DNA from: an uncultured Verrucomicrobiota bacterium
GTDB lineage: Bacteria; Verrucomicrobiota; Verrucomicrobiia; Limisphaerales; UBA8199
Direction of reading: 5' to 3'
Length of the DNA: 64,000 nucleotides
Assembly (NCBI GenBank): GCA_903873945.1
Contig: CAIQQM010000246.1
Location: 8,940 to 72,939 of the forward strand
Shown here in pieces: positions 19,673-30,693 of this stretch. A program made the position numbers and the translations under genes. Position 1 is the stretch's first letter, and each line of letters begins with the position of its first letter. Under the pieces are notes generated by a model. It was not told the origin of the DNA. It saw nothing but the letters and a program-made list of their open reading frames with translations, and ran no database searches.

Positions 19673-19702
19673 AGGAAAAGTTCAGAATTCTTTCGAGGGG
19701 CG

Positions 19703-19733
19703 GTAGAAAGTTGTCGCGCGTATGCGTTTTAAC
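19703..19733 (+). promoter_or_regulatory. candidate autoregulatory ECF-type promoter (site D) of sigma copy 1
   Basis: GTAGAA (19703-19708), the 16-nt spacer AGTTGTCGCGCGTATG, then CGTTTTAAC (19725-19733). Only 17 nt separate it from the sigma ATG at 19751. Confidence 0.6.
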
Positions 19734-19750
19734 CATTATGGACAACTGAC

Positions 19751-20401
19751 ATGACCAGCGATTCCGGCGTCGGGATGGAAGAGCTTGAGCGCCGCCTCCG
19801 GGGCGGTGATCTTGAGGCGTTGGCCGAGGTGTTCTCCCACGAGCGGGACCGCCTGTGGCAGATCATTCACTTCCGCCTGGCCGAGCCGCTGCGGGGGCGG
19901 TTGGGGCCTGACGACGTGTTGCAGGAGTCCTTCCTGGCCGCCAGCCAGCGCCTGAAACATTATGCCAGCAGTCCCGCCACCTCGCCGTTCATCTGGTTGC
20001 GCATGATTGTGAATCAAACACTCATCGACCTGCATCGGCAGCACCTGGGCGCGCAAAAGCGAGACGCCGCCTGCGAAGTTGCCATTGACGGCCTGCCTTA
20101 CGGCCAGGCCACCTCAGCCTCCGTGGCCATCCGGTTGGTTGGACAGTTCACCTCACCAAGCCGGGCGGCAGTGCGCGCGGACGTGCTTGGGCTGGTGCAA
20201 GCCGCCATTGAGCAGATGGACCCTATCGATCGCGAGGTGCTGGCGCTGCGTCATTTTGAGGACCTGACCAACAGCGAAGTGGCCGAGGCGTTGGGCATCG
20301 AACAGGATGCCGCCAGCATTCGCTACATCCGAGCGTTGCGCCGGCTCAAAACAATCCTGGCCCAGGTGCCAGACCTTGGGAAGGAAGTCCAACATGGCTG
20401 A
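19751..20401 (+). CDS. ECF-family RNA polymerase sigma factor, copy 1 (kinase-associated type)
   Basis: Sigma-2 region: RLWQIIHFRL..DVLQESFLAASQRL..FIWLRMIVNQTLIDLHRQH. Sigma-4 region: DREVLALRHFEDLTNSEVAEALGIEQDAASIRYIRALRRLK. The stop overlaps the kinase start (ATGGCTGA). Confidence 0.9.
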   Translation: MTSDSGVGMEELERRLRGGDLEALAEVFSHERDRLWQIIHFRLAEPLRGRLGPDDVLQESFLAASQRLKHYASSPATSPFIWLRMIVNQTLIDLHRQHLGAQKRDAACEVAIDGLPYGQATSASVAIRLVGQFTSPSRAAVRADVLGLVQAAIEQMDPIDREVLALRHFEDLTNSEVAEALGIEQDAASIRYIRALRRLKTILAQVPDLGKEVQHG

Positions 20402-27270: not shown

Positions 27271-27287
27271 CATCATGGCAAACGGGC

Positions 27288-27929
27288 ATGACCGGCGATT
27301 CCAGCGTCGGGATTGAACAGCTTGACCTCCGCCTGCGGGGAGGTGACACGCAGGCGTTGGCCGAGCTGTTCTCCCGCGAACGGGAGCGCCTGTGGCGGAT
27401 CATTCACTTCCGTCTGGCCGAGCCCCTGCGGGGGCGATTAGGGCCAGAGGACGTGCTGCAAGAAGCGTTCCTGGCCGCCAGCCAACGCCTGAACCATTAT
27501 GCAAACAGTCCCGCAACGTCGCCGTTCATCTGGCTGCGCATGATCGTGAACCAGACTCTGGTTGACCTGCACCGGCGGCACCTGGGGGCGCAGATGCGGG
27601 ATGCTGCCCGTGAGGTCAGCCTCGACAGCGTCCCTTACGCCCAGGCGACCTCGGCATCGGTGGCGATTCAATTGGTCGGAATTTTCACGTCGCCAACTGG
27701 CGCTGCTGCGCGTGCTGACGTGTTCAGCCTGGTGCAGGCCGCGATTGAGAAGATGGACCCCATCGACCGCGAAGTGCTCGCCCTGCGGCATTTCGAAGAA
27801 CTGACCAACAGCGAGGTGGCTGAGGCGCTGGGCATTGAGCAAAAGGCGGCCAGCATTCGCTACATCCGGGCCTTGCGCCGGCTCAAAGAAATTCTGGCCC
27901 AAGTGCCAGACCTGGGGAAGCAAGCATAG
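27288..27929 (+). CDS. ECF-family RNA polymerase sigma factor, copy 2
   Basis: Collinear with copy 1 over its whole length (RLWRIIHFRLAEPLRGRLGPEDVLQEAFLAASQRL..DREVLALRHFEELTNSEVAEALGIEQKAASIRYIRALRRLK). The TAG stop lies 1 nt before the kinase ATG. Confidence 0.9.
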   Translation: MTGDSSVGIEQLDLRLRGGDTQALAELFSRERERLWRIIHFRLAEPLRGRLGPEDVLQEAFLAASQRLNHYANSPATSPFIWLRMIVNQTLVDLHRRHLGAQMRDAAREVSLDSVPYAQATSASVAIQLVGIFTSPTGAAARADVFSLVQAAIEKMDPIDREVLALRHFEELTNSEVAEALGIEQKAASIRYIRALRRLKEILAQVPDLGKQA

Positions 27930-27930
27930 C

Positions 27931-30693
27931 ATGGCGGACCTGAGAACAGAACGCGACCCATTGGAAATGCTGGCCGCTGAATACATGGAGCGGCTGCGGC
28001 AGGGTCAGCGTCCGGACATCGAGGATTACGCCGCCCGCTACCCGGCCCTGGCGGAGGACATCCGCGATCTTTTCCCCACGATCTCCGTCACCGAACGCTT
28101 GAAGGCGCGGCAAGCGCAGTCCAGTGGCGGGCGCGCGACCTTGGGGCCGGCGCAACCTGCCCGGTTGGGCGACTTCCGGCTCATTCGTGAAATTGGCCGC
28201 GGCGGCATGGGCGTGGTCTTCGAGGCGGAGCAGCAATCGCTGGGGCGCCGCGTAGCCGTTAAGGTTCTACCGCGCCAAGTCCTGCTGGACGAGAAACACC
28301 TCAAACGATTCGAGCGCGAGGCCCGCATCGCGGCGAATCTGCATCACACGAACATCGTCGAGGTGTTTGGCGTGGGGGAGCACGATGGTTTTCACTACTA
28401 CGTGATGCAGTACATTCGCGGCGTCGGGCTGGATGCGGTCATTCCTCTGCTCGCGAAACTGGCCTGCAATCAGGGGGGCACTGAGCCGCAGCCTGCCCCT
28501 GCATCAGCGAGCGTTCCCACTGCAGAAAACGCGCTGGCCGAAGCGGCCGCGCGGCAATTGATTGGTGAAGGAGCTGGGCTTCGCCCAGAAAATGGCCTGG
28601 TCCCACATTACTGGCAGAGCGTGGCCCGAATCGGTTTGCAGGCTGCAGCCGCGCTGGAATACGCGCACAGCCAAGGGGTGCTGCACCGCGACATCAAGCC
28701 AGCCAACTTGCTGCTCGAGGCCGAGGGTACCGTCTGGCTGGCCGATTTCGGTTTGGCGAAGGCGGCCCAATCCGAGGATGTGTCGCTCTCGCGCGACATC
28801 GTCGGCACGCTGCGTTACATGGCCCCCGAACAGTTTCGCGGTCAGGCCGACCACCGGAGCGACATCTACAGCCTGGGGTTAACCCTCTATGAGTTGCTGG
28901 CTCTGCGGCCCGCTTACGAAGAGACTGACCAGAGCCGGTTGATCCAGCGCATCACCCAAGGATCGCCGCCGCCGCCGGGCACCGCAGGCCTGAGCATTCC
29001 GCGCGACCTCGAGACCATCATTCTCAAAGCCGTCAGCCATGATGTCAACCAGCGCTACCCGTCGGCAGCGGCCATGGCGGACGACCTCCGCTGCTTCCTC
29101 GAAGACCGGCCCATTCGCGCCCGGCGAGTGGGCCCCGTGGAACGGTTGGGCCGCTGGTGCCGCCGCAACAGGACCCTGGCCAGCCTCACGGCGCTTACGT
29201 TCTTCCTGCTCATCATGGTTGCGGTGGTGGCATCCATCGGTTACGTCCGCACAAAACGCGCCCTGCGAGGAGAAGCGTTGCAGCGCGCCAAGGCCGAAGC
29301 TAACGCCGGCCTCGCCATCGAAGCCCTCGACCGGATGTTCGAGCGATTCTCCCCGAGCCGAATGCGGGTTCCTCCACAGCTCTTGATGGAAGGAGCGCAG
29401 AGTGAAGGCGTCAACGTTCCCAGCTCGCCGATTTTGTCCAGAGAAGCCGCCGCGCTGCTGGAGGAGATGCTGCCGTTCTATGACCGGCTGGCGCAGCAAA
29501 CCGGAAATGATGGCAAATTGCGCGCCGAAACCGCTGAAGCCAACCGACGTGTCGGTGCCATCCGCCAGCGCTTGGGCCAGTTCGATGAGGCAGTTAAAGC
29601 CTATCGGCGAGCAATCGCTCTTTACCAAGAGTTGCGCGCCGGATTACCGGCAGAACCGATGCTTAAGCTACAGATGGCGCAGATCGAAAATGAACTGGGG
29701 CGACTATACACCGCGCGGCAGCAGATGACAGAGGCCCGTGAAGCTCATTTGGCCGCTTTGGCTCTGCTGCAAGGCGATGGTGCGTTGCCGTCTGCTCCAG
29801 CCGTGTTGCGCTTCGAACTGGCGCGTACCCACTATTTTCTTGGCACCCAACAGCGCCCACTCCCGGCGGCTGACCCGCGCCAAGGGGTTGGTCCAGCTCG
29901 AATTCCCGATGAGCAACGCGACAGTCTGGCGAAGGCCGTCGCGTTACTCAAAGCCCTCCCGGCTTCACCCGCCGCCAACCCGGAATACCAGCATCTGTTG
30001 GCGCTGTGCTACCTGGAAGGAGCCGCCGTGGGGAATGGTCCCCGCTCGGAAGCCAGAGGGGGTGCCGAACGCGCCATTGAGATTCTCGAAGGCTTGGTTC
30101 AAGCCCACCCGGGAATTCCCGATTACGCCTATGACATGAGCGAGGCTTACGCGAGGATCCACATTCCGCGACCACCCATTCCACCAGAGAATCAGCGGAC
30201 GATTGAGGATCGGTTGGGCAAATCCCTGGCCTTGCTCGAAAAGCTCGTTGCTCAGCATCCAGATATTCCTGATTTTCCTGCCGCCGAAGCGCGTATCCAC
30301 GACAAGCTGGGTTCGTTTCATCGGCAGATGGAACATTGGGCGGATGCGGAGCAGCAATTCCGCAAGGCCATCGCCCTCCAGGCGCCCCTGGTGAAGCAAT
30401 TCCCCGACGCACCCTTTTACGGTCTCTGGATGGCAACATTTCGAATTGCTCTTGCCGACGCCTTGATCCGGCGAAATCTACCGGGCGAGGCACGCACCGA
30501 GCTGGAGGACACTATTTCAACGCTGTTGCGCCAACTGGAGCAGAGGCCAGAGATACCCCCTCCTCACGAGCTGCTCGCGTTGGGTTATTCAAAGCTTGCG
30601 GTTGCTTTGCGCCAGCTTGGAGAAGGAGACCGAGCTGACGAAGCGGAGCGCAAGGCTGAGCAGGAACGAAGCGTTCTTCGCCGTTCCCCCTGA
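27931..30693 (+). CDS. transmembrane Ser/Thr protein kinase with TPR-like C-terminal region, copy 2
   Basis: Start reset to MADLRTERDPLEMLAAEYMERL. Same kinase strings as copy 1 (GRGGMGVVFEAEQ, HRDIKPANLLLE, DFGLAKA, GTLRYMAPEQ). TM helix LASLTALTFFLLIMVAVVASIGYV. Collinear helical C-terminus. Confidence 0.9.
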   Translation: MADLRTERDPLEMLAAEYMERLRQGQRPDIEDYAARYPALAEDIRDLFPTISVTERLKARQAQSSGGRATLGPAQPARLGDFRLIREIGRGGMGVVFEAEQQSLGRRVAVKVLPRQVLLDEKHLKRFEREARIAANLHHTNIVEVFGVGEHDGFHYYVMQYIRGVGLDAVIPLLAKLACNQGGTEPQPAPASASVPTAENALAEAAARQLIGEGAGLRPENGLVPHYWQSVARIGLQAAAALEYAHSQGVLHRDIKPANLLLEAEGTVWLADFGLAKAAQSEDVSLSRDIVGTLRYMAPEQFRGQADHRSDIYSLGLTLYELLALRPAYEETDQSRLIQRITQGSPPPPGTAGLSIPRDLETIILKAVSHDVNQRYPSAAAMADDLRCFLEDRPIRARRVGPVERLGRWCRRNRTLASLTALTFFLLIMVAVVASIGYVRTKRALRGEALQRAKAEANAGLAIEALDRMFERFSPSRMRVPPQLLMEGAQSEGVNVPSSPILSREAAALLEEMLPFYDRLAQQTGNDGKLRAETAEANRRVGAIRQRLGQFDEAVKAYRRAIALYQELRAGLPAEPMLKLQMAQIENELGRLYTARQQMTEAREAHLAALALLQGDGALPSAPAVLRFELARTHYFLGTQQRPLPAADPRQGVGPARIPDEQRDSLAKAVALLKALPASPAANPEYQHLLALCYLEGAAVGNGPRSEARGGAERAIEILEGLVQAHPGIPDYAYDMSEAYARIHIPRPPIPPENQRTIEDRLGKSLALLEKLVAQHPDIPDFPAAEARIHDKLGSFHRQMEHWADAEQQFRKAIALQAPLVKQFPDAPFYGLWMATFRIALADALIRRNLPGEARTELEDTISTLLRQLEQRPEIPPPHELLALGYSKLAVALRQLGEGDRADEAERKAEQERSVLRRSP

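Follow-up and report, generated by a model that had tools for sequence, protein, structure and literature searches.

Two diverged ECF sigma factor/receptor Ser/Thr kinase modules in a Verrucomicrobiota contig, with candidate phosphosites in the sigma linker and a putative local regulon

How a Ser/Thr kinase might control an extracytoplasmic function (ECF) sigma factor that keeps the acidic patch of its sigma-2.2 region is a question on which the locus analysed here bears. The locus lies in a stretch of 64,000 nt ("the window", always meant at its full length) of DNA from an uncultured Verrucomicrobiota bacterium (Verrucomicrobiia; Limisphaerales; UBA8199; assembly GCA_903873945.1, contig CAIQQM010000246.1, positions 8,940 to 72,939 of the forward strand), and comprises two copies of a module in which the gene of an ECF-type sigma factor is followed by the gene of a transmembrane Ser/Thr kinase (sigma1/kinase1 and sigma2/kinase2, Table 1). 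A sequence-only reading of the window had taken them for a diverged duplication of two parallel pathways from a sensor kinase to a sigma factor, with no anti-sigma gene. Our results agree with it in that both ECF sigma/transmembrane Hanks-kinase modules are intact, and show that the pairing is strictly conserved over Verrucomicrobia and Planctomycetota. Activation of sigma factors by kinases has been demonstrated for the ECF43 group alone (in Vibrio and Xanthomonas), while the larger planctomycete and verrucomicrobial families are known by gene neighbourhood only. Genome surveys had already revealed such a sigma-kinase pairing in related bacteria, it is of a kind that is experimentally uncharacterised, and neither the pair nor its duplication would surprise a specialist; what our analysis adds are the linkage statistics, the candidate phosphosites, a conserved box at the N-terminus of the kinases, and a seven-promoter candidate regulon. 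As a compact test case, which combines in 30 kb a pair of diverged sigma/kinase modules with seven well-defined candidate promoters, the locus could tell linker phosphorylation from docking or sequestration, as well as show how duplicated pathways avoid or exploit cross-talk.

Both sigma-kinase pairs occupy exactly the open reading frames (ORFs) that had been assigned to them, and the earlier estimate by eye, according to which roughly four of five residues are identical, is confirmed by the values from pairwise protein alignment: 175/212 residues (83%, ungapped) for the sigmas and 697/920 (76%) for the kinases. Comparison of the window with itself yields a single collinear DNA match (19721-23141 vs 27258-30693, 77.4% nt identity). 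The sliding nt identity between the copies leaves the background at ~19700, where the promoter motif lies, and ranges from 53 to 88% up to the kinase stop. Since the DNA similarity begins at the promoter motif and stops at the kinase stop, the repeat consists of exactly the promoter, the sigma gene and the kinase gene. Recent gene conversion between the copies was considered and rejected, as the sliding identity is nowhere near 100%. The junctions are as previously read, i.e. in copy 1 the genes overlap by 8 nt (caacATGGCTGAc (ATGGCTGA)), and in copy 2 kinase2 starts 1 nt past the sigma2 stop (TAGCATG). The identical two-module layout was found in at least four independent assemblies (ERZ25039479, ERZ1426564, ERZ1426676 and ERZ27313164), whose gene calls place the kinase1 start at 20424 (905 aa) and not at 20394; the ATG at 20394 yields an N-terminus (MAD...RDPLE) that matches kinase2 and the orthologues.

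The two copies are old and intact, and evolve under purifying selection. Nei-Gojobori estimates are omega 0.13 and dS 0.74 for the sigma pair, and omega 0.17 and dS 0.88 for the kinase pair. Divergence is unevenly distributed along the kinases: the N-lobe of the kinase domain is 91% identical between the copies (omega 0.06), the C-lobe 81% (omega 0.11), the ectodomain 74% (omega 0.18), the N-terminal box 72% (omega 0.30), and an insert in the kinase domain 53% (omega 0.41). The comparison of the periplasmic regions with the kinase cores, which the sequence-only reading had suggested, thus reveals the ectodomain to be more diverged than the N-lobe.

The pairing extends far beyond the window. 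The closest genome records are metagenome-assembled genomes of Verrucomicrobia subdivision 3, and Planctomycetota are represented by more distant relatives, with sigmas 44-56% identical and the same gene order. The kinase gene lies directly 3' of the sigma gene in 13/13 Verrucomicrobia loci and in 11/13 planctomycete-type loci; in these loci the similarity often extends through the ectodomain, and among related loci overlaps of 8 or 4 nt between the sigma stop and the kinase start are frequent. A metagenome scan seeded solely with the kinase N-terminal box (hereafter N-box; alignment of 7 sequences) returned 80 loci, and a sigma gene is directly upstream in all 69 that have at least 700 nt of upstream sequence (80/80, if cut contigs are counted). 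In an exhaustive search over 1.84 billion representatives, the N-box was detected in 3654 clusters, invariably at the N-terminus and mostly in proteins of 900-1200 aa; 48 full-length kinase representatives could be aligned over their whole length and have the architecture of the window kinases. The cytoplasmic unit comprising the N-box and the kinase domain is also found with a WD40 ectodomain or without any ectodomain, and all three such distant N-box kinases that were checked have an ECF sigma of ~214 aa encoded upstream. As a sigma precedes the N-box kinases whatever their ectodomain, what is conserved as a core is the sigma/N-box-kinase pair, whereas the sensor domain can be exchanged. Homologue searches returned thousands of relatives, the named isolates including Stieleria, Neorhodopirellula and strain K23_9; in the literature search we found no paper on such sigma-kinase pairs in Verrucomicrobia.

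The architecture described earlier for the kinases, namely an N-terminal RDPLE box, a kinase domain with an insert, one transmembrane helix and a TPR-like region, was recovered in both copies. Pfam finds the Pkinase domain (9e-42) in two stretches, split by an insert of ~55 aa, as well as tetratricopeptide repeat (TPR) matches in the C-terminal part, and a single hydrophobic helix (416-438) is present in both kinases. The Hanks motifs are found in both translations (Gly-rich loop, VAxK, HRDxKxxN, DFG, APE), and the catalytic K111, HRD..N, DFG and APE are invariant in the 48 family representatives. In the AlphaFold2 (AF2) model of kinase1 residues 1-415 (pLDDT 89), the N-box forms three helices (10-23, 30-36 and 38-65) and residues 64-69 are disordered, while the best Foldseek match of the kinase fold is PknB (TMt up to 0.91). 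The kinases are therefore predicted to be of the catalytically active type, as judged from the invariant catalytic residues and the PknB-like fold of the model. The N-box itself (RDPLE.LAAEY.ERLRQG..PSIE.YA..HP.LA.EIR.LFPTI) is conserved across Verrucomicrobia and Planctomycetota, and the sigma gene is its sole known correlate. Its role is likely to be sigma docking, because N-box and sigma strictly co-occur.

We consider it rather probable that the two copies are paralogous functional signalling modules, in which the kinase activates the co-encoded sigma by a phospho-switch in the linker between sigma2 and sigma4, and the sigma serves a regulon of TGTAGAAA-N15-CGTT promoters. Each operon would encode an ECF sigma and a translationally coupled single-pass receptor Ser/Thr kinase with a periplasmic TPR-like sensor. 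A periplasmic cue would activate the kinase, which, possibly docking the sigma via the N-terminal three-helix box, would phosphorylate it, T121/S122/S124 and T134-S135-P136-S137 in the linker being the putative switch residues. The active sigma would then bring RNA polymerase to the TGTAGAAA-N15-CGTT promoters, and drive its own operon (positive autoregulation) together with the adjacent minus-strand operons, whose products would be arylsulfotransferase-like, FGE-sulfatase-domain and PEBP-domain proteins, metallophosphoesterases (of exported or secreted type), and a MacAB-like exporter.

The candidate switch residues stand out by their conservation, counted here, as all other sigma residues below, over 74 distinct relative sequences. 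In the first linker cluster, T121 is present in 70 of these sequences, S122 in 69 and S124 in 70; in the second, T134 is present in 72, S135 in 71, P136 in 73, and S137 in 66, with Thr in another 7. Other positions near the two clusters vary, and the sigma2-sigma4 linker is normally variable. In the AF2 model of sigma1 (pLDDT 83, pTM 0.79, 97 sequences), which matches ECF sigmas in Foldseek, residues 102-118 of the linker are disordered, T121-S124 are located on a confident helix (117-131), and the TSPS motif (134-137) is located in the loop preceding sigma-4. RpoE and AlgU exhibit an alignment gap across part of the 117-131 helix stretch. In RpoE, AlgU and SigW, the alignments place the Glu of the "PE" cap at the position of S137, a correspondence that we treat as a lead and that involves these three comparators only. 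The two clusters are, by their conservation, the best candidates for phosphosites. In Xanthomonas citri, PknS phosphorylates EcfK at linker residues (T104/T106/S108/S110), of which T106 is required for function (PMC13147305); this makes linker phosphorylation the most economical hypothesis also for the sigmas of the window, whose conserved linker Ser/Thr parallel the functional phosphosites of EcfK. The sigma1 model superposes best on closed ECFs bound to anti-sigma factors (CnrH/CnrY, TMt 0.63; SigW/RsiW, 0.58), and with a TM of ~0.3 on the holoenzyme-bound ECF forms, so the compact model is compatible with a closed resting state.

Several points weigh against activation by linker phosphorylation. 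The sigma-2.2 acidic patch is kept, and the acidic loop residues D105 and E109 are conserved as well, hence the sigma may bind core polymerase unmodified. The conserved linker residues could be structural or could contact RNA polymerase instead of being phospho-acceptors, and TSPS may simply be a helix N-cap. AF2 may favour the compact state for many ECFs. No PP2C phosphatase gene was found in the window. Finally, the sigma at 9944-10594 of the Planctomicrobium sp. SH527 chromosome (locus L015 among our related loci, which we number with the prefix L) has no kinase gene downstream. This orphan sigma, which retains the TSxS and TSPS linker motifs, is followed by PlsY-like, Fur-like and PurD genes, and its partner, if any, is encoded elsewhere.

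The putative local regulon can be read with unusual ease. Both sigma genes are preceded by (T/G)GTAGAAA-N15-CGTT, and the claim that the two operons have the same promoter-like motif holds. Six stretches of the window fit TGTMGRAR-N15-CGTT exactly, where 0.04 would be expected, and the site of sigma1 itself has one mismatch. A position weight matrix (PWM) was built from the sites of related loci, some of which belong to the same or a near-identical genome, so that the test is not fully independent; it retrieves exactly seven window sites of the TGTAGAAA-N15-CGTT type, two of them ahead of the sigma genes and five immediately ahead of minus-strand transcription units. These sites score 35.7-44.3, and no other position exceeds 12. 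The motif occurs ~22 nt before the sigma ATG in 13/13 Verrucomicrobia genome loci and in most metagenome loci, and in many related loci also before the divergent gene. Variants of it (GTAGAA or GTAGAC, N16, CGT) remain at loci whose sigma is just 53-70% identical, and a GAA...CGT layout is in keeping with ECF promoters in general (PMC8103513). From these sites we infer positive autoregulation and a local regulon over positions 1-30693 of the window.

Comparison with related loci connects several of the putative target genes with the module. The divergent site facing away from sigma2 precedes a transcription unit comprising a small ORF and the two metallophosphoesterase genes, and homologues of the latter (PEA/PEB) are found upstream of the sigma in L005, L006 and L012. 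A homologue of the PEBP gene is directly divergent from the sigma in L002, L009, L010 and L011, and a site orthologous to the one at 16261 adjoins a sigma1-type module in L046 and L047. The target genes suggest, as far as their predicted domains can tell, a response concerning the cell envelope or extracellular substrates; EcfK/PknS, from another phylum, has a type VI secretion system as its regulon, in contrast to the exported enzymes and the MacAB-like pump here. A conserved ATGAAAA that follows the -10 element was considered as the start codon of the targets and rejected, as neither the MacA nor the PEBP ORF is in frame with it; it is thus part of the promoter-proximal element. The two promoter regions of the TGTCGGAR type form a 56-nt direct repeat (16241-16296 vs 19627-19682, 87.5% identical), which suggests that insertion of the exporter operon was accompanied by copying of the promoter. 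In L046 no exporter separates the sigma1-type module from the PEBP/arylsulfotransferase genes, which it faces directly.

Two further genes on the minus strand (30695-37273), convergent with kinase2, encode a 1146-aa protein with EF-hand, PMP repeats, a beta-helix and a metallo-beta-lactamase fold, and a 1033-aa protein with PKD, Lcl_C and metallophosphoesterase domains. There is no promoter motif before them, hence both appear to be outside the regulon. The PEBP/arylsulfotransferase-like operon also contains, at 13520-14002, the gene of a receiver-only response regulator.

The main rival to activation by linker phosphorylation gives the N-box an anti-sigma-like, sequestering role. The kinase would then be a hybrid anti-sigma factor, whose N-box holds the sigma closed at the membrane until activation of the kinase, by autophosphorylation or by phosphorylation of the sigma, releases it; we judge this reading to be unlikely. 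The position and topology of the N-box match those of the N-terminal cytoplasmic domain of classical membrane anti-sigmas, and the order of N-box, kinase, transmembrane helix and periplasmic sensor mirrors the anti-sigma layout. The strict co-occurrence of N-box and sigma and the closed conformation of the sigma1 model, with CnrH/CnrY as its best match, would also fit, as would the appearance of the N-box in the AF2 model, i.e. as confidently predicted helices that form a unit of their own, tethered by a disordered stretch. Furthermore, with the acidic core-binding patch kept, something else must restrain the sigma. Against it stands the lack of similarity between the N-box and anti-sigma families: the N-box has no Pfam match even at E<=10, its best match among PDB sequences (FliG, E-value 0.04) looks like chance, and it has no Cys and thus no ZAS or zinc motif. 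In addition, PknS of the ECF43 group has a similar N-terminal helical segment (PMC13147305), and EcfP of the same group has been described as intrinsically inactive and not sequestered (PMC8999054). By description, PknS resembles the kinases of the window along its whole length, with an N-terminal helical segment of ~80 aa, a flexible linker, a kinase domain, a transmembrane helix and periplasmic TPRs; it was not among the best 20 PDB sequence matches.

No separate anti-sigma gene was recognised either, in line with the sequence-only reading: Pfam and NCBIfam scans of the ORFs neighbouring the sigmas gave no match to anti-sigma families (ZAS/RsrA, RseA_N, RskA, NepR, FecR and others), nor did the N-box at E<=10, and elsewhere in the window we found no PP2C, FHA or further sigma or anti-sigma genes. 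The locus resembles the RpoE/RseA, SigW/RsiW and CnrH/CnrY systems in the two-domain ECF fold, the autoregulated promoter with a GAA-type -35 and a CGT -10, and the closed conformation of the sigma1 model, and differs from them in the absence of an anti-sigma gene, the downstream kinase, and the extra conserved linker helix with Ser/Thr. An ORF on the minus strand at 26995-27276 was examined as a hidden anti-sigma and rejected, as it has no family match and is conserved solely in near-identical genomes. This 93-aa ORF, present in the gene calls of other assemblies, overlaps the sigma2 promoter, and with a transcription start at the 27170-27196 promoter just its last 52 codons (MNRALLMVLSG...) would be translatable.

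A second rival, which we regard as distinctly improbable, is that the sigmas are constitutively competent and controlled by their amount through autoregulated transcription, the kinase having other substrates and the linkage reflecting a shared regulon. The intact core-binding motifs, the autoregulatory promoter and the orphan sigma of L015 agree with it, and Hanks kinases are often multi-substrate (PMC13147305). The pair, however, has kept its strict linkage and translational coupling over two phyla while the ectodomain swaps between TPR, WD40 and none, as is expected of a dedicated pair, and this reading also sits badly with the near-invariant Ser/Thr in a normally variable linker.

Could the switch instead be located in sigma-2.2, as in ECF43? 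There the DxxD/DAED patch is replaced by uncharged residues, and a conserved Thr is phosphorylated by the partner kinase (PMC13147305, PMC8999054, PMC8103513); the consensus is QTTA, with Thr in 88% of the members (PMC13147305). The Vibrio parahaemolyticus pair EcfP/PknT shares with the modules of the window the principle of a sigma activated by a co-encoded Ser/Thr kinase, but EcfP has STTA in place of the DAED charge and, being intrinsically inactive, depends on phosphorylation of that Thr (PMC8999054, PMC8103513), and EcfK has QATE with phospho-T51, where the window sigmas have GPDD. An ECF43-type mechanism would imply a sigma that is intrinsically inactive, with no negative charge in sigma-2.2 and a phosphorylated Thr in this place. 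The adjoining Hanks kinase, the absence of an anti-sigma (EcfK also lies beside a single-pass Hanks receptor kinase and has none), and the overall kinase architecture common to PknS (PMC13147305) would fit. Nevertheless, we hold it to be very improbable: the sequence of sigma-2.2 is GPDDVLQE in both copies, D55 is present in 74/74 relatives, position 54 is D or E in 74/74, and position 52 is D, G or E, i.e. the pattern is D/E/G-P/A-D/E-D, with no Ser or Thr in the DxxD slot in the window subfamily. The check proposed by the sequence-only reading, for a Thr or Ser replacing the acidic patch, thus turned out negative, and its analogy to EcfP and ECF43 fails at the defining feature of that group (PMC13147305, PMC8999054). 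Because the patch stays acidic here, the phospho-switch, if present, is most likely not at the ECF43 site. Distant sigmas encoded upstream of WD40-type or short N-box kinases (L135-L137) have DSSDVLQE or DPSDVVQD, with Ser where the window subfamily has Asp or Glu, which resembles ECF59/60 as reviewed; their upstream motif is also different (GTGGACA...CCGGAT). The sigma family as a whole seems, on these sequences, to span both states, with Ser in the acidic slot and with the acidic slot kept.

As to the family, the sigmas comprise Pfam domains Sigma70_r2, r4 and ECF, with r2 and r4 as the only sigma-70 regions, as in ECF (group 4) factors, and score above the TIGR02937 cut-off (63.9 and 72.0 vs 42.9 bits). 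The closest NCBIfam model is TIGR02984 (Sig-70_plancto1, "Planctomycetaceae-specific subfamily 1"), to which they align end to end (profile positions 2-188 of 189) with 161.5 (sigma1) and 170.6 bits (sigma2), under the curated cut-off of 183.75; they are near relatives of this model and not members by the NCBI rule. By sequence, they belong to a planctomycete-type, TIGR02984-like family, and presumably fall in another kinase-linked ECF group, ECF59-62 or ECF217, which are known from gene neighbourhood only (PMC7826278). These groups of the Planctomycetes-Verrucomicrobia-Chlamydiae (PVC) superphylum also have an adjoining Ser/Thr kinase, no anti-sigma, and often a DAED-like motif (PMC7826278, PMC8999054); it has been noted that kinase-linked planctomycete groups which keep this motif may work differently (PMC8999054). 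The literature that we found on them covers neither members from Verrucomicrobia subdivision 3, nor a tandem duplication, nor a readable local regulon. The window modules share the co-encoded Ser/Thr kinase, the lack of an anti-sigma and the Planctomycetes-type sequence with the PVC kinase-linked groups. The organisms of the group model proteins (SFI47409.1, OJW24604.1, WP_008685225.1, ELP31162.1) are not among the best 120 matches of a Pirellulaceae (Rubripirellula) sigma used as seed. In ECF59 and the original ECF60, a Ser in the DAED slot is the presumed phospho-acceptor (PMC8103513), and the window subfamily has D or E there.

That the duplication is an assembly artefact, a finding which the sequence-only reading had named as refuting it, or that one copy is a decaying pseudogene, deserves practically no credence, since 77% nt identity is too low for mis-assembled repeats, the two-module layout recurs in the independent assemblies, both copies have full-length ORFs with omega 0.13-0.17, and each has orthologues elsewhere (91% identical to kinase1 in L047, 88% identical to kinase2 in L085).

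Most related loci are nearer to sigma2 than to sigma1, and sigma2 is orthologous to the single copy of most related genomes. The sigma1-type clade is small, comprising the window, L055, L057, L046-49 and L001, with 90-100% identity to sigma1. In the related contig Ga0453630_0002904 a sigma1-type and a sigma2-type module are also found in tandem, with different minus-strand genes between them. The duplication is, by these comparisons, older than the split of these lineages, and the divergent target genes of a module appear to move together with it.

The sequence-only reading had also proposed a shared promoter specificity of the two sigmas. This holds for the most part, given the shared motif at both operons; the targets and the recognition helix, however, indicate a difference. 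The two module-1 target promoters (16261-16287 and 19647-19673) and the orthologue in L046/47 have TGTCGGAR as the -35 element, in place of the TGTAGAAA of all sigma2-type modules, and the conserved Lys186 is lost in the sigma1 clade. Compared with 44 sigma2-type sequences, this clade deviates at a few diagnostic positions, among them 186, at the start of the sigma-4 recognition helix (encoded at ~20306-20308 for sigma1), which is D or G in the clade vs K in 41/44 sigma2-type sequences. The promoter of sigma1 itself retains the ancestral GTAGAAA -35. The loss of K186 and the TGTCGGAR element may reflect co-evolution of the sigma with its -35 element; because this shift is probably a single evolutionary event, it is a lead only towards partial insulation of the pathways or a cascade from sigma2 to sigma1. 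A fuller scheme would combine these observations in a PVC mechanism distinct from that of ECF43, with docking or anti-sigma-like action of the N-box, a switch formed by the linker helix and the cap, S137 restoring the acidic "PE" upon phosphorylation, and splitting of specificity, in which sigma2 drives sigma1 in a two-tier cascade. We put it forward tentatively, as one that is rather doubtful in its entirety.

Table 1. Coordinates of the modules, promoter-like sites and putative target genes in the window (residue numbers for the kinase1 layout)
Feature	Position	Strand	Remarks
sigma1	19751-20401	+	216 aa ECF-type sigma; derived "sigma1-type" clade, D186 replacing conserved K186
kinase1	20394-23141	+	915 aa transmembrane Ser/Thr kinase
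sigma2	27288-27929	+	213 aa ECF-type sigma; conserved "sigma2-type", K186
kinase2	27931-30693	+	920 aa; architecture as kinase1
kinase1 layout	residues ~5-60, 81-385 (insert 171-225), 416-438, 439-915		N-box, flexible linker, Hanks kinase with insert, juxtamembrane helix, transmembrane helix, TPR-like ectodomain
Promoter-like site, sigma1	19702-19728	+	GGTAGAAA-N15-CGTT, then TTAACCATTATGG; ~22 nt before ATG; PWM 44.3, top in window
Promoter-like site, sigma2	27239-27265	+	TGTAGAAA-N15-CGTT; PWM 40.4
Divergent promoter-like site facing away from sigma2	27170-27196	-	PWM 35.8; conserved in L085
Promoter-like site, MacAB-like operon	19647-19673	-	Variant -35 TGTCGGAA; divergent; PWM 38.2
Promoter-like site, PEBP operon	16261-16287	-	TGTCGGAG variant; PWM 40.2
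Promoter-like site, FGE-sulfatase/arylsulfotransferase and SGL genes	5547-5573	-	TGTAGGAA; PWM 36.0
Promoter-like site, FGE-sulfatase-domain gene running off window start	272-298	-	PWM 35.7
Two secreted-type metallophosphoesterase paralogues	23528-25213, 25229-26902	-	40% identical; probable targets of 27170 site
MacA-like adaptor, ABC ATPase, MacB/FtsX permease operon	16332-19608	-	Probable target
PEBP-domain protein, receiver-only response regulator, three arylsulfotransferase-like/PKD proteins	5630-16228	-	Probable target operon
FGE-sulfatase/arylsulfotransferase gene; SGL gene	1566-5510; 445-1545	-	Behind 5547 site

Some features outside the two modules were noted in the course of the analysis. 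The intergenic region 23142-23527 contains, at 23208-23342 on the plus strand, what is left of a histidine-kinase HATPase_c domain, namely its C-terminal ~45 residues (Pfam E=1.9e-10, profile positions 66-110 of 111). This relic follows the kinase1 stop directly and in frame, and has no upstream part; it represents the remnant of a truncated gene at the 3' boundary of module 1. In L047, the 30 codons that come first after the kinase1 stop are conserved as well (80%).

On the minus strand at 1566-13497 there are four large paralogues with an arylsulfotransferase-like beta-propeller and FGE-sulfatase, PKD or InlB-B-repeat domains; their common stretches of 69-76% nt identity indicate a locally expanded family of probably exported enzymes. 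Between the genes of isoleucyl-tRNA synthetase and a TPR protein, the GC content drops from ~0.60 to 0.49 (~54000-59300; GC at third codon positions of the ORFs ~0.48), and this region, which holds a fragment of an IS1-like DDE transposase (55766-56593, minus strand) and an ORF with a P63C domain (56587-57705), is probably an insertion of foreign or mobile DNA. At 59427-60708, internal direct repeats (period ~102 nt, 76-80% identical) correspond to the tandem TPR units of a 742-aa protein (59749-61977, minus strand).

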